Shown: positions 4,228 through 58,190 of the stretch, one piece after another
Position numbering within the stretch: position 1 is the first letter of the stretch
How the letters are laid out: every line of letters begins with the position of its first letter
Assembly: GCF_964213995.1 (NCBI RefSeq)
Contig: NW_027590701.1
Coordinates: 62,001-126,000 of the forward strand
Direction: 5' to 3'
From: Mustelus asterias
Taxonomy: Eukaryota
DNA: 64,000 bases
Program-made: the position numbers and the translations under genes
Notes under the pieces: model-generated
Database searches by the model: none
Told to the model about the DNA's origin: nothing
What the model saw: only the letters and a program-made list of their open reading frames with translations

Positions 4228-4834
4228 CACGGGTTGGATTCTGCTGTTAATCACATCCAGGACTGAACCATGTTCATTCTGACAGTTGGTGAAGTGGGAG
4301 GGTCGGAGGGTTTCTTTCTGCTGGACTGGCCAGTCTCCCAACTTTGTTTCCAGTGGGCTGATGCTCTTTGAGCCTGGGAGAGCACATTTCCACTGAAATG
4401 CTCCACATACGCCGATGAAGGACGTTTATGTTATCCGGTTGTAAATAATGTGTTTCCCCCCCTACTACATGCAGGCCTAAAATAAATGCAGAAAGAACTG
4501 AAAAAATGCAGCTCGTGGAAAAAAATATCCTGGAGCAAAAGAGAAAGGGAGAGGTAATGGTTGTTGTAAATAAATAAAGCATTGGTCCAGAGTAAGTTTA
4601 ATGGCTGAATAAAGGACAGCCCTCCCTATATCTCTCCAGATAAGGCAATTGAAGCCTGATCCACACACACGTGTGTGGTCTCTCCCCGCTGTGAATGGTG
4701 CGATATTTTTTCAGGATGGGTAACCAGTTAAAGCTCTTTCCATAGTCAGTGCACTGGAACACTCTCACTCAGGTGTGTTTGTATGTGTGTGTTGGTGTCT
4801 TTCCAGTCACACTGATGTTTAAAATCATTTGAAA

Positions 4835-5357
4835 CCCCATTTGGAATATTGTGAGCATATCTGAGGAACGATGTGCTGGCCTTGGAAAGGGTTCAGAGGA
4901 GGTTCACAAGAATGATTCCTGGAATGAAGAGCTTGTCATTTGAGGAATGGTTGAGGACTCTGCATCTGTACTCGGAGTTTCGAAGGATGAGAGGGGATCT
5001 TATTGAAACTTACAGGATAGTGCGAGGCCTGGATAGAGTGAACATGGAGAGGATGTTTCCGTGAGTAGGAAAAACTAGAACTAGAGGGCACAAGCTCAGA
5101 CTAAAGGGACAATCCTTTAAAACAGAGATGAGGAGGAATTTCTTCAGCCAGAGAGTGGTGAATCTGTGGAACTCTTTGCCACAGAAGGCTGTTGAGGCCA
5201 GGTCATTGAGTGTCTTTCAGACAGAGATAGATAGGTTCTTGATTAATAAGGGGATCAGTGGTTATGGGAAAAAGGTTGAGAAAAATATCAGCCATGATTG
5301 AATGGCAGACAGACGCGATGGGCCGAGTGGCCTAATTCTGCTCCTATGCTTTATGAT
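4835..5357 (+). mobile_element. CR1-like LINE 3' fragment
   Basis: LERVQRRFTRMIPG...RMRGDLIETY and 3' UTR. Confidence 0.85.
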
Positions 5358-5614
5358 CTAAACCGACAGAACAGAGAAACATTTCTCCTCCTAGATTCAA
5401 AGCCGATGATGTTCTGGTCGCAAGGAATCAAGTGACTGTCAGATCTGTACGTGAAGTTGGAGATTTCTGTCTGTAAATCCTCACCTAATATCCTGTAAAA
5501 GGTGTTTGCAACAGACATCACAGTCAGTACAAGATAGAAATTCAGAACAAACAATTCTAGTTTCTATGGAACATTATTTCCTCTCTTATTCCCCAAATCT
5601 GTAAATCTGAATCC

Positions 5615-5910
5615 TTTTTATTTATTAGTGGGAGAAGTTGGTTTACATTAACATTTTGCAATGAAGTTACTGTGAAAATCCCCGAGTTGTCACACTCCGG
5701 CACCTGTTTGGCCATGCCAAATTCTCCTTCAGTGTAACCAATGTGCCGAACCAGCACGTCTTTCGGACTGTGGGAGGAAACCGGAGTAACCGGAGGAAAC
5801 CCACGCAAGCACAGGGAAAACATGCAGAGTCCGCATACTCAGTGATCCAAGCTGGGAATTGAACCCTGGTCCCTGGCGCTGTGAGGCAGCAGTGCTTTCC
5901 GCTGTGCTGC
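5615..5910 (-). mobile_element. tRNA-derived V-SINE (HE1-like head/core, alternative tail)
   Basis: agcactgctgcctcacagcgccagggacc head and gtgggtttcctccgg..ctccggtttcctcccacagtcc core. Confidence 0.8.
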
Positions 5911-6029
5911 CCTTTACTCAACACTCCCTCCATTCTCACTCTGCTGTATCTAATATTCACCCTCCCCATTCTCCTGAAGGTGCTGATTGAGGCTGATTGA
6001 CAGATCCATGCTCACTGCTTCCTGCCCTG

Positions 6030-6262
6030 TTGTGAGACTTCTTACTGTGTCCTGCCTCATTATTTTGTAAATTGTGTTTGTGAACTGAAATCTCACTCAC
6101 CTGATCAAGGAGCAGCACTTCGAAAGCTAGTGGCTTTTGCTGCCAGATAAACCTGTTGGACTTCAACCTAATGTTGTGAGACTTCTGACTGTGTTTACCC
6201 CAGTCCAATACTCGATTTGGATGAATTGGAAAAGTATTAAAAAAAACTCCAGTATCTCCACA
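6030..6262 (+). mobile_element. Penelope-like terminus (family 1), partial tandem, degenerate hammerhead
   Basis: ttgtgagacttct(t/g)actgtg repeated at ~6030 and ~6174; cacctgatcaaggagcagcacttcgaaagctagtg; flanked by tcctg(c/t)cctg duplication. Confidence 0.7.
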
Positions 6263-6361
6263 TCCTGTCCTGGACACAGAGAGCTGGAAATCTCCATGCA
6301 GGCGGCCAGACAGATATATGTCTATCTGACTGGACTAACAATGTGTGGAATGTACAGACTG

Positions 6362-6745
6362 GGAGAACAATGGGTGGGGGCGGGGCTCCCGGGTCTGTGC
6401 GCCTGAACCCGGAGACGTCACCATGGAGCACAGTGATTGCTATTGGCTGAATCAGGAGGGGTCCATTGTGCCGTCACAATGACTCAGAGGGGCGTTCCCA
6501 GCACACAGTGTCCCATTGGCAGCAATATCACTGGTTACAGAAGCAGCACACTGCGGATTGGACACCAGCTCAGCGCGGCTGGCGGTCAAAGCCCCGCCCA
6601 CCCCCACGTGGGCTCGGGTTCCGCCCCCTCATTGTCTCCATGCGGCAGATTGACCAATGGCAACGCGTGGAGGACCGGATGGGCGCTGGTCCTCCAGCCA
6701 ATCAGAGTCCGGCCCCTGTGTCAATGCCGCGCGGAGCTTCCTGTG
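6362..6745. promoter_or_regulatory. CpG-rich promoter between the ZNF relic (-) and ZNF-3 (+)
   Basis: GC boxes (ggggcgggg), several CCAAT boxes, a CRE-like site and the spaced palindrome at 6668-6696. Confidence 0.65.
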
Positions 6746-7390: not shown

Positions 7391-8772
7391 ATCAAATATT
7401 ACAGCAGGCAGGTTATGATTGAGTGTATAAAATGCTGGAGTACTGTCTGCAGTTCGGGTCACCACACTTTAGGAAGGATGTGATTGCACTGGAGAAGGTG
7501 CAGAGGAGATTCACCAGGATGCTGCCTGGGCTGGAACGTGTCAGTCATGAAGAGAGGCTGGTTAGGCTCGAATTGGTCTCCCTAAAGCAGAGAAGGCTGA
7601 GGGGGGGCCTGATTGAGATGTACAAAAATATGAACGCTCAGTTCACTGACCTTTAGTAGCTGGGTCAATATCCAGGGACATAGATTTAAGTGAGGGGCAG
7701 GAGAGTTAGAGGGGATTTGAGGGAAACAATTTTCACCCAGAGGGTGGTGGGAATCGGGAACTCACTGCCTGATTGGGGGGGGGGGGGGGGCAGGGGGAGG
7801 TGGGAACGCTCAACAGTAAGAAGCATTTAGATAAGTACTTGAAATGTCATAACATATAAGGCTGCTCCTGACCAAGTGGTGAAAGGTGGGATTAGAACAG
7901 ATTGGTGCTTGAGAGCTGGCACAAATACGATGGGTCAAAGGGCCTCTTGCTGTGTTTTAAAACTCTGAGGACAGAATTATGACAGTGTGGTTATGTGTTA
8001 AATATTGGATGGTTCTATAATAAAGTACATTTATTATTATTTCTTGTCTTGTAATATAGTACTGTAGCTATGTTATATATTTCCAGTCAGAGCCATTATA
8101 GCACAGGGGGAGTCCATTGGACAATTCAAGGCCCTGCTGACTCTCTGTCGAGCAATTCTGTCAGTCTGGAGAGGGTCCCATTCTGTACTCCTGCAGCACC
8201 CATCCAATCACATTTAGAAATTACTGACCATCTCTGCTTGACTACCCTCACAGGCAGCAAGTTCAGGAGCATGACTAATCACAACCCCCATATCTTAACC
8301 AACTTACAGATTTAGGGGAATGAGTGGGGAAAGAATGTTCTATAGAAACTAGAATTATCTGTTCTGAATTTTGATCCTGTAGTGACTGTGATGTCTGCTG
8401 CAAATTCCTTTTATAGGATATCAGAAGGTTAGGATCCATTGACAGAATCCCAAACCATGCGCCACGTCAAGATTTGACAGTCGCTCAATTCATCTGGACC
8501 TGAATACCATCGGCCTTTGCATCTAGAAGGAGAAATGTTTCTCTATTCTGTCTGCTTCAGAAGGCGTTAAATGTCAGTGTGACTGGAAAAGCACCAACGC
8601 ACACACACACCCGAGTGAGAGTGTTCCAGTGCACTGACTGTGGAAAGAGCTTTAACCAGTTATATAGCCTGAAAATACATCACAGCTTTCACAGTGGGCA
8701 GAGACTGTACCCGTGTTCTGTGTGAGATTTAACTGATTGTTTAACCTGGAGAGTCACAAGGACACCTGAACC

Positions 8773-9615
8773 ATGGAGAAACCATGGAAATGTGGGGACT
8801 GTGGGAAGGGATTCAGATTCCCATCTCGGCTGGAAATTCATCGACGTATTCACACTGAGGAGTGGCCATTCACCTGCTCTGAGTGTGGCATGGGATTCAC
8901 TTATTTCTCCAAGCTGTTGAACCACAAAGTCACTCACACTAATGAGAGACCCTTTAAATGCTCCGACTGTGGGAGCAGCTTCAAAAGGGCGCAGGAACTG
9001 CTGAGACACGAGCGAATTCACACTGAGGAGAAACCGTTCAGCTGCTCTCAATGCTCAAAGAGATTTAGATCAACATCCAACCTGCAGGAACACCAGCGAG
9101 TTCACACCAGTGAGAGACCCTTTAAATGCTCCGACTGTGGGAGTGAATTCAAAAGGTCTCAGGATCTGAGGGACCACCAGCACATTCACACCGAGGAGAG
9201 ACCATTCAGCTGCTCTCACTGCACAAAGAGGTTTCGAACATCATCCCACCTGCAGAGACACCAGCGAATTCACACTGGGGAGAAACCATTCACCTGCTGT
9301 GTGTGTGGGAAGGGATTCATCGATTCATTCAACCTGCGGGAACACCAGCGAACTCTCATTGGGGAGAGGCCATTTATCTGCTGTGTGTGTGGAAAGGGAT
9401 TCACCCGGGCATCCAGCCTGCTGACACACCAGCGGGTTCACACCGGGGAGGGGCTGTTTACCTGCTCTCACTGTGGGAAGGGATTCACTCAGTTATCCAG
9501 ACTGCAGGTACACGTTCGAGTTCACACTGGGGAGAGACCATTCACCTGCTCTGTGTGTGGAAAGGGATTCACTCAGTCAACATCCCTGCAGAGACACCAG
9601 CGAGTTCACAAGTGA
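8773..9615 (+). CDS. C2H2 zinc-finger protein ZNF-3, 10 fingers (finger 7 lacks the last His)
   Basis: 280 aa intact ORF MEKPWKC...HQRVHK with accATGG Kozak context. Confidence 0.92.
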   Translation: MEKPWKCGDCGKGFRFPSRLEIHRRIHTEEWPFTCSECGMGFTYFSKLLNHKVTHTNERPFKCSDCGSSFKRAQELLRHERIHTEEKPFSCSQCSKRFRSTSNLQEHQRVHTSERPFKCSDCGSEFKRSQDLRDHQHIHTEERPFSCSHCTKRFRTSSHLQRHQRIHTGEKPFTCCVCGKGFIDSFNLREHQRTLIGERPFICCVCGKGFTRASSLLTHQRVHTGEGLFTCSHCGKGFTQLSRLQVHVRVHTGERPFTCSVCGKGFTQSTSLQRHQRVHK

Positions 9616-10505: not shown

Positions 10506-11859
10506 GGCAGGGAACAGGCTACAGATGAATTCAAGAGAAACCATTTGTGTCCAGAACATTGTGAAGATCCTTTTACTCTGGTTGTCTTTGATCCTCAAGT
10601 CATTTTCTGTTTGTTTTAACCATGTTCTGTTTCATTAATAGACTTTTATCAGTAAAAATATTTGATTTTTCTGGACTTTTCCTGATGAGATTGATGCACT
10701 TTAGGGAAAGTGGGTGAGAGGTGTGGGCAGGTTCTTTAACAGAAAGTGAGTCCCTCTAAGGTAATTGGCAAAGGAGCCAGAGGGGGAGATGAGATTTTAT
10801 TTTTTGACACAGTGAGTTGTTCTGATCTGCCTGAAAGCAGATTCAATAGTTTACCTCCAAAGGGTAAAGACTTGAGTGGGAAGAATTTGGGGAAAAAACA
10901 GTGCAGTTGGATGAATCAGAGAGTTCTTTCAAAGAGATAACAGGAGGACGATGGGCTGAATGGAGTCCTCCTGTAGCCTGTCAATCTCATCCTCCAGCTT
11001 TTGTGCGTGTTAAAAGGGGCAGATTTCATTGCAGCCTCTTCCCTGTATATGTATTTAAAGAGACGAGTTTCTCTTTAGCTCTGAGTGACCGATATAACAA
11101 TTGGTTGGAGGCCCATTTCTCACTCAGTCCTCCAGCACCTTCCTGTCTCTCGATTACTGCAACATACATTGCAGTTTTCCAACTGGGGCGCAGGCCTCAT
11201 TATTCTCAGCTAAATTCAGCCCTCAGCTCCGTCGCCTGGCTGTCATTGACACAAGCAATAGAGAGACAGAAAGGTGCCCCAGGCTCAAATGGGAAGTCAA
11301 AACACAGGGCTTTGAATGAATTATTAGGATCTCTGTAATGATCAATAATTTAAAGAAATGAATTCTAAACTCAATGAGTAAATCAAAGAATCACATGACA
11401 AAACTTCAAGTTTTATGACTTCTCCTCCAACAAACTGGAAGCAACAATGACTAAACACTTTTTTGTCGGGAACATAACCCTTAAACTGTAAAATTGAACT
11501 TTGCCCTTTTACTCTTAACACCATCAAATGTCCCACTCAATGGGGATATTTTATTCCATCTTGGAATGTTGACACTCAATTCTCCAAGAATGAGTCCAAG
11601 GTGATTTTTCACTCCCCAAGAGTTTATTTCCATTGTTTTCCTTTTCCAATCTGGCAACCTTTAATCCCAGAGCTGTCCTTCACAGTGATGGTTCTCCTGG
11701 ACATTTTCCCACTAACACAAGCAAGGTGAATCTTCCAGCCTTGTTTCACAATTCTCAGAAATTTGTGACCAACATTCGACATTGGAGCAGAAGTTGGCCA
11801 TTTGGCCCTTTGAGTCTGCTCCACCATTTATTTAGATCATGGCTGATCTGTTTGTGTTG

Positions 11860-17275: not shown

Positions 17276-17809
17276 GGTGCAGGTGTCCTTGCCTCTCCCT
17301 TGGGTGGACAATCAGTTGAAGCCTCACACAGAACACGGGTACAGTCTCTCCCTGCTGTGAATGGTGATATTTATTCAGGCTGTGTAACTGGTTAAAGCTC
17401 TTTAGTCAGTGCTCTGGAACACTCTCACTCGGGTGTGGCAGTGTGTTGCTGCTTTTCCATTCACTGATGGCCGAAGTATTTTCAAATCGAAGTGGAAGGT
17501 TTAATCTGAAGCTCAGTGGCCAACTTCCGCATTGAGACGTCACAATAGAGCGCTGCCTGAATCAGCCAATAGGAATTACTCGGCTCCGCAGTGACGTGTC
17601 GGGGTTCCATGGCGCAGGCCCGGCTCGCGGACCCGGGAGCCCCGCCCCCGCCCATTGTTCCCCTCCCCCTGCACCTCCTCCAGCCACGGTTTCCAGGCAA
17701 CCGGCTGGCGGCTCCGGCCAGAGCGAGAAGCCGCTCGGTGAGCTCCCCCTCCCCCCTCTCTCTCCTGCGGCTCCAAAAAGAGATCGAGAGCGACCGCTGG
17801 CGGCAGCCG

Positions 17810-17942
17810 CACTGCGCCTGCTCCGGACAGCTCAGCTCAGCAGCGCTCTCTGCGCCTGCTCCGGACAGCTGGGCTCAGCAGCGCTCTCTGCACCTGCTCC
17901 GGACAGCTGGGCTCAGCGCTCTCTGCGCCTGCGCGCTGGGCT
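17810..17942. repeat. GC-rich minisatellite, ~38-bp unit x3-4
   Basis: tgcgcctgctccggacagctgggctcagcagcgctctc repeated. Confidence 0.9.
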
Positions 17943-18046
17943 GCCAGCTGAGGGAGTGGGGGAGCGGACTTTGCAAAATCACTTCCCATCATTTTCTTCC
18001 AAGTCCCGCAGTTTGATTTGAAACAGAACAGCTTCTGTTTGGAGCC

Positions 18047-18270
18047 TCACCACAGACTCAAACTTCACACACAGACTCAAACTTCACCACAGACTCAAAC
18101 TTCACACACAGACTCAAACTTCACCACAGACTCAAACTTCACACACAGACTCAAACTTCACCACAGACTCAAACTTCACCACAGACTCAAACTTCACCAC
18201 AGACTCAAACTTCACACACAGACTCAAACTTCACCACAGACTCAAACTTCACACACAGACTCCAACTTCA
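18047..18270. repeat. Minisatellite of 18/20-bp units cacagactcaaacttcac(ac), ~12 copies
   Basis: Directly visible tandem array. Confidence 0.95.
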
Positions 18271-18636
18271 TCCTCTGGACAACATCTGTGAGGAAAACAC
18301 TTTCTTTCTCCCCCTGGGAAATACAGAGACAGAGAAATTCTCTGGAACTGGAATTAGAGCCAAATATACTGAGGGGGAAATGTTTGTGATTTTGTGGAAC
18401 CTGTTTTTATTGTCTGAGCTTTTTAAAGTGTAATTTATCCTGTCTATTCAAATAGTGTTTCTTAATGCATGATCAGTGATGTTAATTTTAGATTAATTTT
18501 TAAAGTAAATTTTAAAAAAAATGAAACATTGTCTTTCAGTTTATTCCATTGGGATTTGTGGGAATGTGTTTATTATAAGGTGATCATGAGGATCGTAACA
18601 ACATTGATATGTCTGGTGTTGGTGCATATGATGTAG

Positions 18637-21984: not shown

Positions 21985-22302
21985 CAGGCAGCGGGCGATC
22001 GAGGAGGCCGTCCATCCTGACTGTCTGCCCCTCTACTGCGGGTACATTCACAGCCAGGTGTCCCTGGAGAGGGAGCATGCGGTGTCCACGGGCGCGGTTG
22101 ATGCCTTCCGTGCCCGCTGGGCACCGCAGGGGTTGGGGTGCGTTATCGACCCTGATAATCACATTTTAATTTGATGTTTTTAAGTTTCCTTTGTACTTTG
22201 ATTTTTGTTCGGGCTGTTCCCCCTCCTTTTGGGGAGCTGCCCCTTTTACTTTGTCCTGACTTAATTTGAGTTTGTTTATTCGGTTTGACCTAAAAAGAGG
22301 CC
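21985..22302 (+). mobile_element. Tx1/L1-clade LINE 3' end
   Basis: Closely similar to 35945-36260; T-rich 3' UTR ending tttgacctaaaaagagg. Confidence 0.6.
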
Positions 22303-24162
22303 AAGAGTTTATGGGAGTCCATCCATTATCTTTTCACTAAACAAGCCTCCAATTTTCCTTTAAGCTCTCAAACTGTGGACTCCTCAGTCTAAACATGGGC
22401 TTCACTGCATTCTTGCTGAGGCATTTAAATGTTGGAAACACCCCTGGTTTCCAACGGTCCTCTAGGCTTCTAGTCCCACAGCTGGTTCACAGCTCCTGGT
22501 CCCAGAACTGGTGGCTTCCAAGCTGACTGCAGACTGTCCGCTGGAACCAGGTCATTGATTGGAAAGGACTCAAAGGTTCCGGGGAAAAGGCAGGAGAATG
22601 GGATTGAGATTTATCAGTCATGATCGAATGACACAGCAGATTCGATGAGCCAAATAGCCTAATTCTGCTCCTATATCTTATGGTCTAATTCTAACCAAGG
22701 CTCCACCCTGAATCACATATCTCCATGGTAACAGAGACCAGGTGGAATATCTGACAGATATTTAGCTTCAAAACTAAACCTTTTTTCCTGAGGTTTGCAT
22801 GAAGAATTAACCTAACAAAAACAGTACAATAATTGTCAGACCCAATGTCTCCAGCTAAAAGATCCAGCTGACTTTTTACAGTTCTTACTTCTCGAGTTTT
22901 GACTTCTTAAACCAACATGGGCCATGCTTTGTGACTGCGAATTCCCTGAGGGTGTTTTCATCAGATTCTCAACCCAGGTTTTCCATTTTTTAAAAGCAAT
23001 TCTTGCAACTAATTCTTATTTCTAAAACATAGGAATTATGAAATTAGATTTTTGTAACAAAAACAGGAAGAAATGAAAATGTATCACCTTCATAATATCC
23101 CATTTAGAATATTACAATATACAACATGCTGTATATCTTAACAACAGCCATGATCTTATTGAATGGTGGAGCAGGCTCGAAGGGCCACATGGCCTCCTCC
23201 TGTTCCTAAATCCACTGTTTTCCTGTGTTGATCTATCTTATAACCTGCAATAGACACAATAATCCCTCCATTGTCTACTTCACATTCACAAGTCCAGCTT
23301 GGTAACAGCACACTGCTGGGTTCCATGTCCAGGAATCTCAGTCCACTGAAGATGGAAATTACTGCTTGCAGTCTTTTCTGACGGTTTTCTTCTTACAATA
23401 ATTATAGTCCAAAGTTCCTCCTGCAAAAGGAGAGTCTTCATTGCTGTTCATTTGTGAATTTTCAAGTTCTATTTTGAAAACAGTCTGTACAGAGTTCACA
23501 TTTTGAAATTTATTTTCTTCCATGTTTGTAGTTCCTCCATTGTTTAAATCCAGAGAGAATATTCCACTCAATTCCACATTGAAACTGTTTTCTTCTTGCT
23601 CAGTTATAGCTGATTCCTTTATTGTCCAGGACAATATATTCACAATATCTTTAAAACAGAAATTAAACATTCCCATTTGATTTTAGACAGGAACATATTC
23701 TGTTCATTTGTTCTTTATTGTCAATGTCAGGCTGGTGTTGTTCTCCTTGGAGCAAAGGAGGTTGAGGGGAGATTTGATAGAGGTGGACAAGATTCTGACA
23801 GGTTTAGATAAGGTGGACAAAGAAAAGCTGTTCCCATTAGCTGAAGGGACAAGGACGAGGGGGACACAGATTTCTTGTTTCGGGTCAGAGATGCAAGCGG
23901 GGAGGGGAGATGTGAGGAAGAATATTCTGATGCAGCGAATGGTAATGACCTGAAACTCGCTGCCTACGAGGGTGGAGGAAGTGGAGACAATAAACAATTA
24001 CAAAGGAAATTGGATGGGCATTTGGGATGTTCCAAACAGAACGAAGAACAAAGAAAATTTTGTTTTCTCAAAGAAAACAAAAAAAAAACAAAAAAAAGAA
24101 CAAAGAAAATCCATCAAGACATCATTTGACTGAGTTTGGCAGAAAGGGACCGACGCAGGGTT

Positions 24163-29518: not shown

Positions 29519-30277
29519 TCACTCGTGAACTTGTTGATGTCTCAGCAGCTGGGATGAAACTCTGAATCCCTTCCCACACTGAGAGCAGGTGAACGGCCTC
29601 TCCCCAGTGTGAACTCGCTGGTGTATCCTCAGGTGGGATGACCGAATGAATCCCTTCCCACACTGAGAGCAGGTGAACGGTCTCTCCCCAGTGTGAACTC
29701 GCTGGTGTCTCTGCAGGTGGGATGATCGAGTGAATCCCTCCCCACATTGAGAGCAGGTAAATGGTCTCTCCCCAGTGTGAACTCGCTGGTGTGACTGCAG
29801 GTTGGATGACCAAGTGAATCCCTCCCCACACTGAGAGCAGGTGAATGGCCTCTCCCCAGTGTGAACTCGCTGGTGTGTCTGCAGGCTGGATAACTGAGTG
29901 AATCCCTTCCCACACTGAGAGCAGATGAACGGCCTCTCCCCAGTGTGAACTCGCTGGTGTCTCTGCAGACTGGATAACTGAGTGAATCCCTTCCCACACT
30001 GAGAGCAGGTGAATGGCCTCTCCCCAGTGTGAACTCGCTGGTGTGTCCGCAGGTGGGATAACCGAGTAAATCCCTTCCCACACTGAGAGCAGGTGAATGG
30101 CCTCTCCCCAGTGTGAACTCGCTGGTGTGTCCGTAAGCTGGATAACTGATTAAATCCCTTCTCACACTGAGAGCAGGTGAATGGCCTCTCCCCAGTGTGG
30201 CTGCGCCGATGAACTTCCAGCTCTGATGGGGCTCTGTATCCCTTCCCACAGTCCACACATTTCCATGGTTTCTCCAT
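29519..30277 (-). CDS. C2H2 zinc-finger protein ZNF-6, 9 fingers
   Basis: Intact ORF from ATG 30277. Highly homogeneous CSQC fingers, ending [14 protein letters not shown]. Confidence 0.92.
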
Positions 30278-30949
30278 GATGCAGGTGTCCTTGCCTCTCT
30301 CTTGGGTGGACAATTAGTTGAAACTTCGTCCACACACAGAACAAGATTACAGTCTCGACCCGCTGTGAATGGTGTGATATTTATTCAGACTGTGTAACTG
30401 GTTAAAGCTCTTTAGTCAGTGCATTGGAACACTCTCACTCAAGTGTGGCAGAGTGTTGATGCTTTTTCACTCACACTGACATGTCAAATCTTTTCAAATC
30501 GACAGACTGGACAATCATTTCTCCTCCTGGATTCAAAGTTCGATGATATTGAGGTCCCAAGGGATATGACTCTGTCACGTCTAGACGTGATGTTTGAGAT
30601 TTCAGCCTGTGATTCCTCTTTCAAGATCCTGTAAAATGAGTTTCCAAAAGTCATCAGTGTCAGTGCAGGATAGAAATTCAGAACAGACAATTTCTATGGA
30701 ACATTCTTTCCTCTCTCATTCCCCAAAAGCTGTAAATCTCCATCCCACACACTCTCTCCCCATTCTCAACAGGTCTGGCAGCATCTGTATGGAGAGAAAA
30801 GAACTGATGTTTCAGAGCTTTGACAAAGGGTCATCTAGACAAGAAACATCAGCTCTTTTCTCTCCTTACAGATGCTGCCAGACCTGCTGAGATTTTCCAG
30901 CATTTTCCCTCCTGGTTTCAGATTCCAGCATCCGCAGTAATTTGCTTTT

Positions 30950-31887: not shown

Positions 31888-31987
31888 CTCGGGTCCTGCT
31901 GGGCTTCATTCTCGGGTCCTGCTGGGCTTCATTCTCGGGTCCTGCTGGGCTTCATTCTCGGGTCCTGCTGGGCTTCATTCCCGGGTC
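31888..31987. repeat. 23-bp tandem repeat x4
   Basis: gggtcctgctgggcttcattctc, within a decayed LINE segment. Confidence 0.92.
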
Positions 31988-32039: not shown

Positions 32040-32145
32040 ATTACCCGCACTGCGCATGCTTCAGGTCCCGCCCCTCATTCACTCCGATTGGTTGGAGGAC
32101 CAGCCGCTCCCGCTCGGTCCTCCAGCCCCGCCCCATCTTCCTACT
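32040..32145. promoter_or_regulatory. Promoter remnant between ZNF-6 (-) and ZNF-7 (+)
   Basis: tgcgcatgc, GC boxes, gattgg and the spaced palindrome at 32093-32124; cut by a SINE. Confidence 0.55.
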
Positions 32146-32351: not shown

Positions 32352-33313
32352 TACATTGCTGATGAGAATTTTAATTTACTGACTTAGGAATTAATTCTCG
32401 GGAATAGTCATTCTGAAAATGACCATTAAAATGTGTTTAATTTACCCACTTTGCCAGATTTCAGTTTGCATTTCAAAATTGAATTGAGAATGTCTGAGAG
32501 CAAATGGTAAAATGAGGTTTGAGACACCAGCTGCAATTATTTTCTGTGACTGATGATACCTTTGTGCCTGTGCAGGAGGTCATTCCCCTGCTGTTGTGGC
32601 ACAATGAAATGGAGCTTTTCCTCGGAACAGGCCCATGTAAATGGTCATCGTGGTGTTTCATTGGTGAGCAGAGCACGTGTGCCCATTGTGGTAACAACAG
32701 AGTCAGTGGGGCTGCACGTCCCCTGACTTGGAAGGAAAATAATTGACTCCTTGATTGTACTCTCAATCTGCACATGGCCTGCAGGACTGAATCCAGCTGG
32801 AGGGAGAGGGAGCTGGGCTCAGAGTGGAGTTGGGGCAATGAGTTTGATTTCAGCTCAGGGACAAGAGAGAGTGTGTGGGATGGGGATTACAGCTCAAGAT
32901 AAATGAGACAGAGAAATGTTTCGTGGAAACTGAAATTGTCTGTTCTGAAGCAGTTTTTAAAAACTCTGTGCAGGGAACTAGAAGAGGAAGATTCACAGAC
33001 AGGAAACTCAAACTAAACTTCACATCAAAGTCTGACAGAGCCATTCGATTCAGCATGACCTAAATATGATTGCTTTTGACAGTGGAGGGATAAATCGTTC
33101 CCTGTTTTGTCAGTGGAAGAAAATTTCAAAATTCAATGTGACAGAAAAAGAACTGAGACACACACATACACCCAAGTGAGAGTGCTCCAGTGAACTGACT
33201 GTGGATAGAGCTTTAACCAGTTACATAGCCTGAAAAACATCACACCATGGTCTGTAGGTGGATGAGGCTTCAACTAATCAACCAACCTGGAGAGACAGAA
33301 GGACACCAGCACC

Positions 33314-34716: not shown

Positions 34717-35219
34717 AGTACACAGGCCAATTTATCTTTCTAGGGGTGAGTGTGTCTGAGAGGTATGCAACTGGAAAACATTTTCCATTCACCTCCTGCA
34801 TTGCTGCAGTATAAATAGATGTTGTTCTCACTCTGCCAGCAGGGCTGTGGGATTAATTGGACAGATCTTAAAGACAGCCCGACTGGGCAGGATGTGCCAA
34901 GTGGTTTCCATCTGTGATGTATCATTCCATAAAACAGAATAGTCAGCATCAGGAGAAAGAAAGTAAAAGAAATCAGTCTCTGTGGGATTTACCCAACCAG
35001 TATGAGCACCTTCAGGAGAGCAGAGAGAGAGGAAACCAGTGGGAAAAGTTTTAAAAATTCGGGGTATTCCCACAGGAGAGCACTGGCTTAAATTAATTTT
35101 AGAAATAGAGAATGGCAGCGCACAAATTCCGAGGAATGCATTTTTAAATATTAATTGATCTTAATTGCACAAGATAATTTTCTATTATTGTCTTTGATTG
35201 ACAATGACGCCATTAATTC

Positions 35220-35620
35220 CCAGGTGCCCCTGCGGGTGTGAAAGTGTCCTATTCATTCCAAAGGAGCCTATTGCGCAGGCGCGGTGCTATATCTGGAGCG
35301 TGCGCAGTGTCACTTAGCCCGGAGCCCTATGAGTGCGGGAGATGCTTTTTTCAACGGGTGAGTCGGTGGGGCTGCGGGAGAAATGGAGCCGGGAGTCGGG
35401 GTAGGGAGGGAGCTATGGCTTCACAAACACCCGCTGTCGGCCGCACGGCCCGAATAAGACCCTGCAGGTCCCGGGTTTACAGCTCCCAGGCTTTTATCCC
35501 GGGAACAGGCCCCGGTTATCGGCCGCCATCTTGTTTCAGCGGGGAAGGAGAGCGCATGCGCTGCTGTCGGTGGCGGGTCACAATGGGCGTGGTTTCAGGG
35601 GCTGGTTCAGAACCTCTGTC
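35220..35620. promoter_or_regulatory. CpG island upstream of ZNF-8
   Basis: NRF1-like gcgcatgcgc (~35552), YY1-like gccgccatcttg (~35522) and a possible donor cgg/gtgagt (~35357). Confidence 0.65.
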
Positions 35621-35631
35621 TTCAGAGGGAC

Positions 35632-35869
35632 AATAGAATCATAGAAACCCTACAGCACAGAAAGAGGCCATTCGGCCCATCGAGTCTGCACCGACCACAA
35701 TCCCACCCAGGCCCTACCCCCATATCCCTACATATTTTACCCGCTAATCCCTCTAATCTACGCATCCCAGGACACTAAGGGGCAATTTCTTTAGCATAGC
35801 CAATCAACCTAACCCGCACATCTTTGGACTGTGGGAGGAAACTGGAGCACCCAGAGGAAACCCTCGCAG
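35632..35869 (-). mobile_element. HE1-like V-SINE, 5'-truncated at the Tx1 junction
   Basis: Core plus CR1-like tail (ttctatgattctat). Confidence 0.8.
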
Positions 35870-36260
35870 AGAGGGGCGTGTCGGGATGGTGACCTCCTTG
35901 TGAACTTGCTCCTGGGCCTGGCAAAGCGCGCCATTTATCGGTCCAGGCAGCAGGCGATCGAGGGGGCCATCCACCCTGACTGTCTGCCCCTCTACCGTGG
36001 CTACGTTCGCGGCCAGGTGTCCCTGGAGAGGGAACATGCGATGTTCATGGGTGCGCTTGACGCCTTCCGCCCCCATTGGGCACCGCAGGGGTTGGGGTGT
36101 GTTATCGACCCTAATAATCACATTGTGATTTGATGTTTTTAAGTTTCCTTTCTACTTTGATTTTTGTTCGGGCTGCTCCCCCTCCTTTTGGGGAGCTGCC
36201 CCTTTTACTTTGTCCTGATTTAACTTGAGTTTGTTTATTTGGTTTGACCTTAAAAAAGGC
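35870..36260 (+). mobile_element. Tx1/L1-clade LINE 3' end abutting the ZNF-8 exon-1 donor
   Basis: ORF GDLLVNLLLGLAKRAIYRSR...VRGQVSLE...AFRPHW resembles a Tx1 ORF2 C-terminus. Confidence 0.6.
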
Positions 36261-36860
36261 CAACATCTGTGAGTGAAACACTTTTTTTCTTTTCTCCCCC
36301 TTTCCATTTCTTTTCTCATTCCGGGGGAAATTGGGGACTTGCAGCAACTGAAGGGAAAGGAAGTGAATCCAGTCTGTATATTCCATACATTGTTAGTCCA
36401 GTCAGATAGACATATATCTGTCTGGCAGCCTGCATGGAGATTTCCAGCTCTCTCTGTCCAGGACAGGAAGCAGTGAGCATGGATCTACCAATCAGCCTCA
36501 ATCAGAGGGTGAATATTAGATACAGCAGAGTGAGAATGGAGGGAGAGTGTGTGGGATGGAGATTTACAGCTCTTGGGGAATGAGAGAGGAAAGAATGTTC
36601 CATAGAAACTAGAATTGTCTGTTCTGAATTTCTATCCTGTACTGACAGTGATAACCTTTGTAAACTCCTTTTACAGGATATCAGAAGTTGAGGATTTTAC
36701 AGACAGAAATCTCAAACCAAACATCACATCAACATCTGACAGAGTCACTCAATTCATCGGGACCTGAATATCTTCGGTCTTTGAATCCAGAAGGAGAAAT
36801 GTTTCTCTGTTCTATCGGCTTCAGCAGTCTTTAAACATCATTGTGACTGGAACAGGACTG

Positions 36861-42713: not shown

Positions 42714-43136
42714 TCACTCGTGAACTTGTTGGTGTCTCAGCAGCTGGGATGAAACTCTGAATCCCTTCCCACACTGAGAGCAGGTGTACGGCCTCTCCCC
42801 AGTGTGAACTCGCTGGTGTGTCTGCAGGCTGGATGAGTTAGTGAATCCCTTCTCACACTTCGGGCAGGTGAACGGCCTCTCTCCGGTGTGAACTCGCTGG
42901 TGTGTCTGCAGGCTGGATAACTGAGTGAATCCCTTCCCACACACAGAGCAGGTGAATGGCCTCTCCCCAGTGTGAATTAGTTGGTGTGTCCGCAGTTCAG
43001 ATGACTGAGTGAATCCCTTTCCACACACACAGCAGCTGAACGGCCTCTCCCCAGTGTGACTGCGTCGATGAATTTCCAGCCGAGATGGGCACATGTATCC
43101 CTTCCCACAGTCCACACATTTCCATGCTTTCTCCAT
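42714..43136 (-). CDS. C2H2 zinc-finger protein ZNF-9, 5 fingers
   Basis: 140 aa intact ORF MEKAWKC...HQQVHE. Confidence 0.88.
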
Positions 43137-43692
43137 GGTTCGGGTCCTTGTGACTCTCCAGTTTAAATAATCAGTTAAATCTCACACAGACCACTTCAGA
43201 AGCTGACAGAACAGAGAAACATTTCCCCTTCTAGATTCAAAGGTCAGTGATATTCGGGTCCTGATGAATTGAGTAATTCTGTCAGATGTTGATGTGACAT
43301 TTGGTTTGAGATTTCTGTCTGTAAATTCTCACCTTCTGATATTCTGTAAAAGGAATTTACAAAAGTCATCAGTGTCAGTACAGGATAGGAATTCAGAACA
43401 GACAATTCTAGTTTCGATGGAACATTCTTTTCTCTCTCATTCCCCAAAAGCTGTAAATCTCCATCCCACACACTCTCCCTCCATTCTCACTCTGCTGTAT
43501 CTAATATTCACCCTCCCAATTCTCCTGAAGGTGCTGATTGAGGCTGATTGACAGATCCATGCTCACTGCTTCCTGTCCTGGACACAGAGAGCTGGAAATC
43601 TCCATGCAGGCTGCCAGACAGGTACATGTCTATATGACGGGACCAAAAATGTATGGATTATATAGACTGGACTCACTTCCTTTCCCTTCAGT

Positions 43693-45279: not shown

Positions 45280-45860
45280 AGTGTTTTACTCACAGATGTT
45301 GATGATTGGAGAAGTTTGAGCCTGTCTGAAGCTCAATCTTCATTCAGAGAGAGATCAGCAGCTTTGCTGGGCAGGAATGAGCAGCTGAACAAGCTCATTG
45401 TCCACTTCCGCATTCAGACAATGGGGAAGCTCTGATTGGATGGAGGACCCGAGTACTTCCGGTCCTCCAGAGTTCCCATTGGTCAATCCCCCGCAGACAG
45501 ACAATGAAGGGCGGAGCCTCACGTGGGGGTGGGCTGGACTTTGTCCTCCAGCCGCGCTGAGCTGTTGTCCAATGGGAAAGGCTGGAAGACCCGGACAGAC
45601 AAAGGTCAGTGGGCCGGCTTTGGCCCGGGCCCCGCCCCACACCCGCACATGCGCATTCCCCCAAAACCCGCACATGCGCACCTCTGATTCACTGCCGCTC
45701 ACCAGCTCCGGCCAATGGGAAGACTTGGAGGACCGGAAGGATCCTGGTCCTCCAGCCAATCAGAGCGCGGGCTTTGTGTGAATGAAGATTGAGCTTCAGA
45801 CAGACTCCAACTTCCTCCTGTTTCAACCTAAAAGAGGCCAACATCTGTGAGTAAAACACC
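45280..45860. promoter_or_regulatory. Bidirectional promoter of ZNF-9 (-) and ZNF-10 (+)
   Basis: Mirror-image exon-1 donors (aacatct/gtgagtaaaacac) at both ends, two CCAAT-palindrome modules, central GC box and NRF1-like acatgcgca x2. Confidence 0.8.
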
Positions 45861-46465: not shown

Positions 46466-47869
46466 TTTGATCCCTCAGTTTGACACATTTATTTGTCTGG
46501 CTAAAAGATGGTCTCTTTCCTAATGTTCACAATTAAAGGGCAGCTTTCCCCAGGAGATGGCTGACATTTAAGGGGCAGTAAATTAATATAGGACAGAGAT
46601 ATGTCTAGTGTTGTTATATGGTACAGATTAGATATATTATTTATGTTTCTGTAAAAAAATGCATTTATTATTATTTCTTGTCTTGTAATATAATGCTGTA
46701 GCGATCTTATACATTTCCAGTCATAAAGTCATTACAGCACAGAAGGAGTCCGTTCGGAAACTCAAGTCCATGCCGACATTCTGTATAACTTTCCATTCCC
46801 ATTCCCACTCTATATCCCCGTTCTCCTGAAAGTTTGTTTCCTTCAAGTGCCCATCCAGTTTCATTTTTAAATAGAATCCATAGACTTGTAATATGGAACT
46901 GTAGTTACGTTATATATTTCCAGACATCTCTTCCCTCAGAGGGTTGTTAGTCTTTTGGATTTCTCTTCCACAGGGACCAGTGGAGGCTGAGGGTCATTGA
47001 ACATATTCCAGGATGAGTTGGACTGATTTTTGACTGACAAGGGTGTTAATGGTTATGGCGAACAGACAAGAAGATGGAGCAAAAGCTGAGATGTGGGGGG
47101 ATTTCTTCACTCAAGGATGTGGTGAAGCTTTGGAATTCTCAACTGTTGAGGACAGTGGAGCCTCAGTCATCAAGTATTTTCAGGGGAGAGATTGATTGGT
47201 TTCTCGATATTGAGAATATCAAGGGATATGGGTTTAGTGTGGGGAGAATGATGCTGAGGTAGATGAGCCAATGATCTCATTGAATGGTTTAAAAGGCTCA
47301 ATGGGCCAAATGGCCGACTGCAGCTCCTATTTGTTATGGTCTCTGTGTCCAGGACAGGAAGCAGTGAGCATGGATCTGTCAATCAGCCTCAATCAGCACC
47401 TTCAGGAGAATTGGGAGGGTGAATATTAGATACAGCAGAGTGAGAATGGAGGGAGAGTGTGTGGGAGGGAGATTTACAGCTTTTGGAGAATGAGAGAGGA
47501 AAGAATATTCCATAGAAACTAGAATTGTCTGTTCTGAATTTCTATCCTGTACTGACACTGATGACTTTTGCAAACTCATTTTGCAGGATATTGAAAGAGG
47601 CCTCATTGGCCTTTGAATCTCGAAGGAGAAATAATTGTCTGATCTGTCGATTTGAATAGATTTCAAATGTATGTGTGACTGGAAAAGCAGCAACACACTG
47701 CCACACTCGAGTGAGAGTGTTCCAGTGCACTGACTAAAGGGCTTTAACCAGTTACACCGCCTGAATAAATATCACACCATTCACAGTGGGGAGAGACTAT
47801 ACTCGTGTTGTGTGTGAACGAGGCTTTAACTGATTGTCCAAACAAGACAGAGGCAAGGACACCTGCACC

Positions 47870-48544
47870 ATGGAGAAACCATGGAAATGTGTGGACTGTG
47901 GGAAGAGTTACAGATCCCCATCTCTGCTGGATGCTCATCGGCGCAGCCACACTGGGGAGAGGCCATTCATCTGCTCTCAGTGTGGGAAGGGATTCACTCT
48001 GTCATCCAGCCTGCAGAGACACCGGCGAGTTCACACTGGGGAGAGGCCGTTCACCTGCTCTCAGTGTGGGAAGGGATTCACTCGGTTATCTACTCTGCAG
48101 ACACACCAGCGCATTCATACTGGGGAGAGGCCATTCATCTGCTCTCAGTGTGGGGAGGGATTCACTCAGTCATCCAACCTGCAGAGACACCAACGAGGTC
48201 ACACTGGGGAGAAGCCATTCATCTGCTCTGTGTGTGGGGAGGGATTTACTGAGTCTTCCAACTTGCAGAGGCACCAGCGAGTTCACACTGGGGAGAGGCC
48301 ATTCACCTGCTCTGTGTGTGGGAAGGGATTCACTCAGTTATCCGATCTGCTGACACATCAGCGAATTCACACTGGGGAGAGGCCGTTCACCTGCTCTCAG
48401 TGTGGGAAGAGATTTGCTCGGTCATCCAGCTGGTGGAGACACCAGCGAGTTCACACTGGGGAGAGGCCGTTTACCTGCTCTCAGTGTGGGAAGGGATTCA
48501 GAGTTTCATTCTTGCTGCTGAGACACCAGCAAGTTCACGAGTGA
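47870..48544 (+). CDS. C2H2 zinc-finger protein ZNF-10, 8 fingers
   Basis: Intact ORF from accATGG at 47870. Confidence 0.92.
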
Positions 48545-56279: not shown

Positions 56280-57038
56280 TCACTTGTGAACTCGTTGGTG
56301 TGTCTGCAGGTGGGATGACTGAGTGAACCCGTTCCCACACACGGTGCAGGTGAATGGCCTCTCCCCAGTATGAACTCGCTGGTGTCTCTGCAGATTGGTT
56401 AACTGAGTGAATCCCTTTCCACAGGCAGAGCAAGTGAATTGTTTCTCCCCAGTGTGAACTCGCTGGTGTACCCGCAGATAGGATGACATTCTAAATCTCT
56501 TTGAGCAGTGAGAGCAACTGAACGGTCTCTCCTCAGTGTGAATGCGCTGGTGGGACATCAGAACCTGAGAGCTTTTGAAGTCGCTCCCACATTCAGAGCA
56601 TTTATAGGGTCTCTCATTGCTGTGAGTGACTCTGTGTCTGCGCATGCTGGATAACCAAGTGAATCCTTCCCCACACACAGGACAGTTGAACGGCCTCTCC
56701 CCGGAATGTACTCGCTGGTGTATCCGCAGGCTGGATAAGTCAGTGAATCCCTTCCCACACACAGGACAGGTAAATGGTCTCTCCGCAGTGTGAATTTGCT
56801 GGTGTGTCTGCAGATGACATAACTGAGTAAATCCAGTACCACAATCAGAACAGGTGAATGGTCTCTTCCCCGTGTGAATTCGTTGGTGTGTTTGCAGGTT
56901 GGATGAATCATAGAATCCCTTCCCACACACAGAGCAGGTGAATGGTCTCTCCCCAGTGTGACTGCGTCGATGAATTTCCAGCTCAGATGGGAACCTGAAT
57001 CCCTTCCCACAGTCCCCACATTTCCACGGTTTCTCTAT
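56280..57038 (-). CDS. C2H2 zinc-finger ORF ZNF-12, 9 intact fingers but start codon ATG>ATA
   Basis: accATAgagaaa at 57036-57038 where paralogs have accATGgagaaa; the rest of the ORF is intact. Confidence 0.7.
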   Translation of the reverse strand: MEKPWKCGDCGKGFRFPSELEIHRRSHTGERPFTCSVCGKGFYDSSNLQTHQRIHTGKRPFTCSDCGTGFTQLCHLQTHQQIHTAERPFTCPVCGKGFTDLSSLRIHQRVHSGERPFNCPVCGEGFTWLSSMRRHRVTHSNERPYKCSECGSDFKSSQVLMSHQRIHTEERPFSCSHCSKRFRMSSYLRVHQRVHTGEKQFTCSACGKGFTQLTNLQRHQRVHTGERPFTCTVCGNGFTQSSHLQTHQRVHK

Positions 57039-57809
57039 GGTTCGGGTGTCCTTGTGACGCTCCAGGTTAAACAATCAGTCAAATCTCACACAGAACACGG
57101 GTACAGTCTCTCCCGCTGTGAATGCTGCGATGTATTTTCAGACTGTGTCACTGGGTAAAGCTCTTTCCACAGTCAGTGCACTGGAACACTCTCACTCGGG
57201 TGTGTGCGTGAGACTTGGTAAATTCTCAGTCACGCTGATGTTTAAAGTCTCCAGAAGCAAAAAGAACAGAGAAATATTTCTCCTTCTAGGTACAAAGGCT
57301 GATGATGTTCAGGACATGATGAATTGAATAAATCTGTCAGATATTGATGTGACATTTGCTTTGAGATTTCTGTCTGTAAATCCTCACCTTCTGATATTCT
57401 GTAAAAGGAATTTATTAAAGTCATCACTGTCAGTACAGGTTAGAAATTCAGAACAGACAATTCTAGTTTCTATGGAACATTCTTTCCTCTCTCATTCTCC
57501 AAAAGCTGTAAATCTCCGTCCCACACACTCTCCCTCCATTCTCACTCTGCTGTACCTAATATTCACCCTCCCAATTCTCCTGAAGGTGCTGATTGAGGCT
57601 GATTGATAGATCCATGCTCACTGCTTCCTGTCTTGGACACAGAGAGCTGAAAATCTCCATGCAGGCGGCCAGATAGATAAATGTCTACATTACTGGAGTA
57701 AAAATGTGTGGAATATACAGACTGGATTCACTTCCTTTCCCTTCAGTTGCTGCAAGTCCCCAATTTTCCCCAGAATGAGAAAATAAATGGAAAGGGGGAG
57801 AAAAAAAAG

Positions 57810-58190
57810 TGTTTTACTCACAGATATTAGAGAGAGCAGGAAAATTTTGTCTGACTGCATCTCCATGTTCATTCACAAAACGCCCGCGCTCTGATTGACT
57901 GGAGGACCAGAGTCCTTCCGGTCCTCCAACTCTTTCCATTGGTCAACGCTTCAGCATGAAGGTTAGGGGGCGGGGTGAGCTCTCATTGCACATGCGCAGC
58001 TTCCCCTCTCCTCTGGACATGCGCAGTCCAATGTGGCCCGCCCGCGTGGTGGATAGAGCGGTTTCTCCATCGTGGGCGATTGTGGGAGCTGCGGCCGCCA
58101 TTACTCATCCGGATCCCAGTCGCTAAACTCCCGGGACTGTGATGGAAAATGGGAGTGGGGGGCGCAGTGACCCCACCCTGACACAAACTA
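57810..58190 (-). promoter_or_regulatory. CpG-rich promoter and first exon of ZNF-12
   Basis: Minus-strand donor at ~57822, spaced palindrome 57900-57928, CCAAT, GC box, acatgcgca x2 and gccgccatt. Confidence 0.7.

Follow-up and report, generated by a model that had tools for sequence, protein, structure and literature searches.

A spaced palindrome recurs upstream of zinc-finger (ZNF) genes in the 64-kb window, i.e., the whole stretch of DNA analyzed here. We propose that it is part of a cis-regulatory module that the promoter of this shark/ray C2H2 subfamily carried ancestrally and that was duplicated with the genes while its two arms were maintained by selection; the arms would be paired half-sites for one factor acting with NF-Y and ETS proteins. 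We assign this reading a probability of roughly 0.58. Judged from the DNA alone, it is a real, probably functional and apparently undescribed promoter motif.

The window is a tandem C2H2 zinc-finger gene cluster interspersed with LINE and SINE-like fragments. Its 13 finger clusters, two of which were merged as one, correspond to 12 ZNF genes. A protein search gave top identities that include one ray and two sharks (61, 58, and 56%), and exon 2 of the family is similar to the named Scyliorhinus torazame protein P0034 (E = 4e-5); on these grounds the DNA comes from a shark or ray. The pattern TGGAGGACC-N-GGTCCTCCA has five exact matches in the window versus none in 100 dinucleotide shuffles, and all 10 exact 9-mer arms found in the window lie within these five pairs. 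The positions and spacers given in an earlier note on this DNA were reproduced exactly: 6668-6696, 45441-45469, 45726-45754, and 57900-57928 with 11 nt between the arms (N11) and 32093-32124 with 14 nt (N14). The exact palindrome is present upstream of 5 of the 12 ZNF genes, one of the 12 having its 5' end outside the window. All five exact copies are located inside CpG-rich segments (in 4 of 12 such segments, which together make up 7% of the window); the other eight segments comprise two that are promoter-like and six over repeats or coding sequence. The motif profile found nothing in the promoter-like islands 17451-18050 and 35191-35720, so the description of the palindrome as a motif of ZNF promoters applies to five genes and not to these two islands.

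Read in gene orientation, the modules that we call A, D, E and F share the layout CCAAT-N8/9-TGGAGGACC-GGAWG..-GGTCCTCCA-N-YCAATCAGAG, in which CCAATGG is followed by a linker of 6-7 nt, the first arm with GGA(A/T)G, the second arm, a single base and YCAATCAGAG. Module A (6654-6702, plus strand) has CCAAT boxes at 6654 and 6698 on either side of its palindrome and is followed by a LINE-like fragment after at most about 60 nt. Modules D (45435-45482, minus strand) and E (45712-45760, plus strand) are oriented head-to-head: the boxes of D (45482-45478 and 45439-45435) are 43 bp apart and enclose the minus-strand N11 palindrome at 45441-45469, the first arm of which is overlapped by the ETS-like ACCGGAAGT, while those of E, at 45712 and 45756, are 44 bp apart. 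Module F (57894-57942, minus strand) has a CCAAT at 57942 and a variant box, TCAAT, at 57898. In module C (32087-32133, minus strand), which carries the N14 palindrome and a CCAAT at 32091, a GC box replaces the upstream CCAAT and the ETS core is missing, with the end of a SINE-like repeat about 17 nt upstream. The number of CCAAT boxes is thus two each in A, D, and E, one next to a TCAAT in F, and one each in C and in a decayed sixth copy, B, described below. The right arm is 1 nt from a CCAAT box in all six copies (TCAAT in F) and the left arm 8-9 nt from a box in four of the six. The reported CCAAT abutting one arm is therefore present in four of the five exact copies but not at 57900, and the second box beyond the other arm also occurs in four, though at 8-9 nt instead of about 7-8 bp. 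CCGGAAG occurs in three of the five exact copies, as had been noted, and CCGGATG in a fourth. This CCGGA(A/T)G core fits the ETS consensus and we take it to be an ETS site; in the form ACCGGA(A/T)G it overlaps the inner end of the first, left arm in 4/5 exact copies.

Three modules precede finger arrays with a predicted exon-1 splice donor: the 5-finger array at 42714-43181 (minus strand, module D), the 8-finger array at 47834-48544 (plus strand, module E) and the array at 56280-57074 (minus strand, module F). The putative donors, predicted from the donor consensus and conservation in five paralogs, lie 146 nt past the downstream CCAAT in gene D (45288-45298, minus strand), 91 nt past it in gene E (45842-45852, plus strand; CATCT|GTGAGT) and 77 nt past the downstream box in gene F (57816-57826, minus strand). 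Module A probably belongs to the array at 8770-9615 (plus strand), based on orientation and a distance of 2 kb, and module C, based on orientation, to that at 29519-30313 (minus strand); no exon-1 donor was found for these two. Two further genes retain the CATCT|GTGAGT donor but no part of the upstream module, which one of them has lost to a tandem repeat and the other to an insertion.

The flanks of A, D, E, and F align at 73-85% identity over 60-235 nt, and these four exact copies are one inherited promoter module and not independent occurrences. Tandem and inverted duplications of the genes carried the module along, and the palindrome recurs across the window because the promoter was duplicated with them. 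This also corrects the earlier view that the spacers differ, for which the strands had been mixed: once all four N11 spacers are read toward their genes they prove homologous, with 70% pairwise identity and 5 of 11 columns invariant. The motif-bearing genes occupy three or more branches of a tree that is poorly resolved, with one of eight inner branches starred. By promoter similarity E pairs with F, yet in the intron tree E groups with C, and D with F, a mismatch that suggests recombination or conversion between paralogs.

With descent shared, the question is whether the arms are more constant than their surroundings. In A, D, E, and F all 18 arm columns are invariant compared to 7 of 20 in the adjacent linkers (Fisher p = 1.6e-5). 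When modules were picked by their boxes alone (CCAAT..YCAATCAGAG, 43-44 bp), the arms were intact in 4/4, and the two other box pairs listed, without the CAATCAGAG tail, are without arms. As a more cautious background we used the paralogous intron/exon-2 block, in which 127 of 186 columns are invariant, including runs of 12 and 13 columns. The chance of 18 invariant sites on this background is 0.68^18 = 1e-3, or 1.4e-4 from the tree of the block (length 0.49, five copies), and it rises to 0.01-0.03 if both arms evolve in concert (0.012 from the tree). Three bases of the left arm belong to the ETS site as well, and some two bases of the right arm agree with the extended NF-Y consensus. Removal of the three ETS-shared bases leaves 15 invariant sites (P about 6e-4 to 2e-3). 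The comparison of arms and flanks that the earlier note had called for, run on the four paralogous copies in the window, hence shows arms that exceed both linkers and paralogous intron, and the interleaving of conserved blocks with diverged linkers argues against recent gene conversion. Statistically, the arms are kept by selection on their sequence, as judged from four to five related copies in one window; the evidence for this constraint is good and rests on few related copies. Conserved blocks split by drifting linkers have the pattern of a protein footprint, and we consider the arms to represent a real one.

The arms had been described as unchanged in all copies. This holds for the five exact ones, but decayed copies exist in the window at 11106-11134 and 45583-45612, so invariance applies only among copies chosen for exactness and is partly a matter of ascertainment. 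The former, found by a relaxed scan as a sixth copy with one substitution per arm, is copy B (11100-11134, minus strand), a decayed homolog of C that has kept its N11 spacer and CCAAT and does not lie upstream of a ZNF 5' end. Its local alignment with C scores 45 against a shuffled maximum of 31, its arm changes are of the CpG type, it lies outside every CpG-rich segment, and we read it as a dead promoter. An nhmmer profile of four copies again picked out 32093 (E = 7.5e-6) and 11106 (E = 0.021), together with a seventh, half-decayed copy, G, at 45565-45596 (E = 0.0019). The module of G (45569-45612, plus strand; palindrome 45583-45612) comprises CCAATGGG, a left arm TGGAAGACC (one mismatch) and, of the right arm, no more than GGTC. 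Nearby, a lone half-site, GCTGGAGGACA, occupies 45542-45552 on the minus strand (9-mer 45542-45550, one mismatch), and its equivalent in promoter A (6578) has drifted further. The spacer is N11 in five of six copies, B included, whereas the N14 copy has intact arms.

CCAAT boxes usually sit upstream of the start site, and the NF-Y and ETS sites are named here after their consensus sequences. According to our model, the ancestral promoter of this shark/ray C2H2 subfamily carried the module, which gene duplication then spread. The arms would most likely be two inverted half-sites, with the consensus (G)CTGGAGGACC(R)G, for one putative sequence-specific DNA-binding factor. The centers of the half-sites are 20 bp apart, about two helical turns and on the same face of the helix, and they are flanked by the two CCAAT (NF-Y) sites at a distance of 43-44 bp, about four turns. 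Together with NF-Y and ETS proteins the factor would set the basal transcription, of the CpG-island type, of some family members, from a predicted start just downstream of the module. Our guess is that it cooperates with NF-Y; competition is possible as well, because the right arm is only 1 nt from CCAAT. Rather than a fast-evolving local ZNF, it is probably a conserved factor that acts in trans and tolerates variable spacing. In human data ETS factors co-occupy NF-Y promoters, and no fixed distance between ETS site and CCAAT is reported there (PMC4889920).

Several other explanations account for some of these observations. The idea of an operator-like dimeric site is sustained in one half: a protein-binding site is best supported, given arms that exceed linkers and paralogous intron and exact copies in CpG-rich DNA. 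The N14 copy, in which the helical phase is shifted by about 100 degrees, and the lone half-sites speak against a rigid dimer and suggest flexible or independent binding. It is unlikely that the palindrome is the site of an undescribed dimeric regulator and serves as a family-wide operator, controlling much of the KRAB-less ZNF family of sharks and rays as one unit, possibly with feedback by family members and conserved across elasmobranchs. Also unlikely is an ordinary composite of NF-Y, ETS and GGAGG/CCTCC-type monomer zinc-finger sites, the symmetry of which would be the unread relic of an old small inversion. The ACCGGA(A/T)G over the left arm, the right arm running into the CCAAT box, the lone half-sites and the N14 spacer all agree with such a composite, but copy C keeps both arms intact without an ETS core and the 15 sites that stay invariant after removal of the ETS-shared bases (P as above) are left over. 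Autoregulation, with one of the family's own ZNFs binding the arms and thereby acting back on the cluster, appears the least probable, even though mammalian KRAB-ZNFs do target promoters and other KZNFs (PMC10547256) and the family is large with only 12 genes in view. The best of 63 local finger triplets matched 6/9 positions, below the null median of 7, a weak test based on a rough code table that lends this earlier suggestion no support, and no KRAB, SCAN or BTB was found among the Pfam families listed for six finger exons (the best 25 for three of them).

A structural element, either an RNA hairpin in the 5' UTR or a DNA cruciform, was also suggested before and seems improbable to us. The stem folds in all six copies (z-scores of -0.8 to -2.5), the loop varies in length (N11, N14) and the next pair is a G-U in 4/5 aligned copies on the sense strand. 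The 5' UTR form is possible if transcription starts upstream of the palindrome, which is conceivable because exon 1 would otherwise be so short, at 77-146 nt from box to donor. Yet none of the 12 pairs shows changes on both sides (seven never vary and so are uninformative), covariation does not exceed that of shuffles, structure alone would leave the letters free to change, and cruciform extrusion would cost +17 to +28 kcal/mol before junction terms in the five exact copies; the hairpin/cruciform reading thus gains no positive support. Rfam gave no match in the window at gathering thresholds, and a tRNA scan of the window gave none either. Still less probable is that the arms were inherited neutrally or are the relic of a retroelement 3' tail made symmetric through template switching. 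A single promoter is indeed the ancestor of every copy, LINE/SINE-like 3' tails resemble E with a score of 28 (p = 0.005 versus six hand-picked local tails), and a LINE-like tail at 10940 has 10-bp arms of its own that share GGAGGAC. However, shuffled queries routinely score 26-28 against the whole window, so the match of E is not significant, and D and C show no resemblance (p about 0.5); with p values of 0.005-0.5 versus the six local tails and no similarity above the whole-window background, we found no support for an origin from a LINE/SINE tail. No target-site duplication was seen, and 0/5 copies have the symmetric between-copy variants that template switching predicts. As to dispersal by a transposon, raised earlier as an objection, the flanks of the copies match only other ZNF promoters within the window and not dispersed repeats, and the sole stray copy, B, is a decayed promoter homolog.

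Among the known factors considered, which included ZBTB24 as described in its papers, none matched the motif. The ZBTB24 site CT(G/T)CCAGGACCT was rejected as a candidate: it matches all 10 arms at 7-9 of 12 positions, and its C5 and T12 are never matched. It shares with the arms an AGGACC core and is likewise the promoter-proximal site of a BTB zinc-finger factor; unlike the palindrome, it comes without an inverted pair as far as described in PMC6895263 and PMC6212772. Outside the window, searches with peptides translated from the promoters in two frame alignments gave no named match (the first, 1 of 888 candidates; the second, one in the representative library and 0 of 2092 candidates), the two hits being unnamed records that were set aside. 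The motif frames had no match in six named shark and ray proteins, of which P0034 alone matched exon 2. A GTDB scan for motif plus CCAAT returned no match, as expected for prokaryotes. In P0060 (Amblyraja radiata), residues 1-75 read as translated promoter DNA (SDW, DVT, LIG), probably a mis-annotation; this N-terminus is promoter-like but does not fit the module, and we dismissed it as a module-derived sequence.

The closest relatives of the module in the literature are composite NF-Y elements, such as E-box-CCAAT, TALE/DECA-CCAAT and spaced CCAAT arrays (PMC4889920, PMC12065363). As presented in these sources, they have consensus CCAAT boxes at fixed spacing, each element with a partner motif whose distance to CCAAT is constant, and they are found in GC-rich, TATA-less promoters with GC boxes and NRF1-like and ETS-like sites, as is the case here. 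In the module, by contrast, the partner is a spaced inverted repeat that corresponds to no recognized motif, with CCAAT at 1 nt instead of 10-12 bp. Another promoter-proximal element, common to many ZNF paralogs, is MER57E3, which lies near the start sites of human ZNF genes and has been proposed to multiply along with the genes and not through separate transposition events (PMC12947407). It is described there as a retroviral LTR relic of several hundred bases, mostly in intron 1, whereas the module has a 29-bp footprint upstream of exon 1 and no supported transposon origin. The zebrafish FiNZ-ZNF genes (PMC10547256) likewise form an expanded KRAB-less family with promoter classes, but these are TATA versus TATA-less, and the account includes neither a palindrome nor sharks. 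From what these sources cover, the kind of element is already known, both as NF-Y composites and as promoter-proximal elements spread with ZNF genes; this particular motif is apparently undescribed, and no description of it was found in the literature searched, as far as its coverage goes.

Little is known about how large, fast-evolving ZNF families are jointly switched on outside tetrapods. A fixed 29-bp footprint could serve as a ready bait with which to fish out the regulator and, in the genomes of sharks and rays, as a marker that distinguishes live ZNF promoters from dead ones. If only NF-Y, ETS and generic sites were inherited by duplication, the module would be ordinary promoter anatomy.

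Some further features of the cluster were recorded. The segments 17530-17663 and 6362-6481 share, at 75% identity, another type of promoter with a GC box, a CRE-like GACGTCA and a CCAAT; promoters here are mosaics, since the copy at 6.4 kb lies directly upstream of module A. A truncated ZNF paralog lies head-to-head with gene A at 4646-6362 (minus strand), where homology to intron 1 and exon 2 is not followed by a finger array. At 57891-57900, the change from CCAAT to TCAAT in F yields TGATTGACTG, close to the consensus of the PBX/PREP decamer. Tandem repeats occur in 5' regions at 18033-18307 (18/19-nt units made of exon-1 sequence), at 31888-31987 downstream of module C (23-nt unit) and at 17792-17932 (a GC-rich unit in the 17.8-kb island). 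The LINE-like 3' tail at 10940-10974, 130 bp from copy B, has perfect 10-bp arms, ACAGGAGGAC and GTCCTCCTGT, around a spacer of 15. Two 3' fragments at 21990-22310 and 35860-36262 belong to the same non-LTR element, which we label Tx1/L1-like, and end in GACCT(A/T)AAAA(A)G-AGGCCAA; in the 37041 gene, exon 1 is fused to one of them. Gene E has a similar 20-nt stretch in the same place of its exon 1 (45825-45841), which may point to targeted insertion or to a relic that both have in common. Finally, several genes, at 8597-8725, 47729-47817, 33158-33236, and elsewhere, have degenerate finger-like sequence 5' of their MEKPWKC start, where named shark proteins carry an intact extra finger and a MEGK start.
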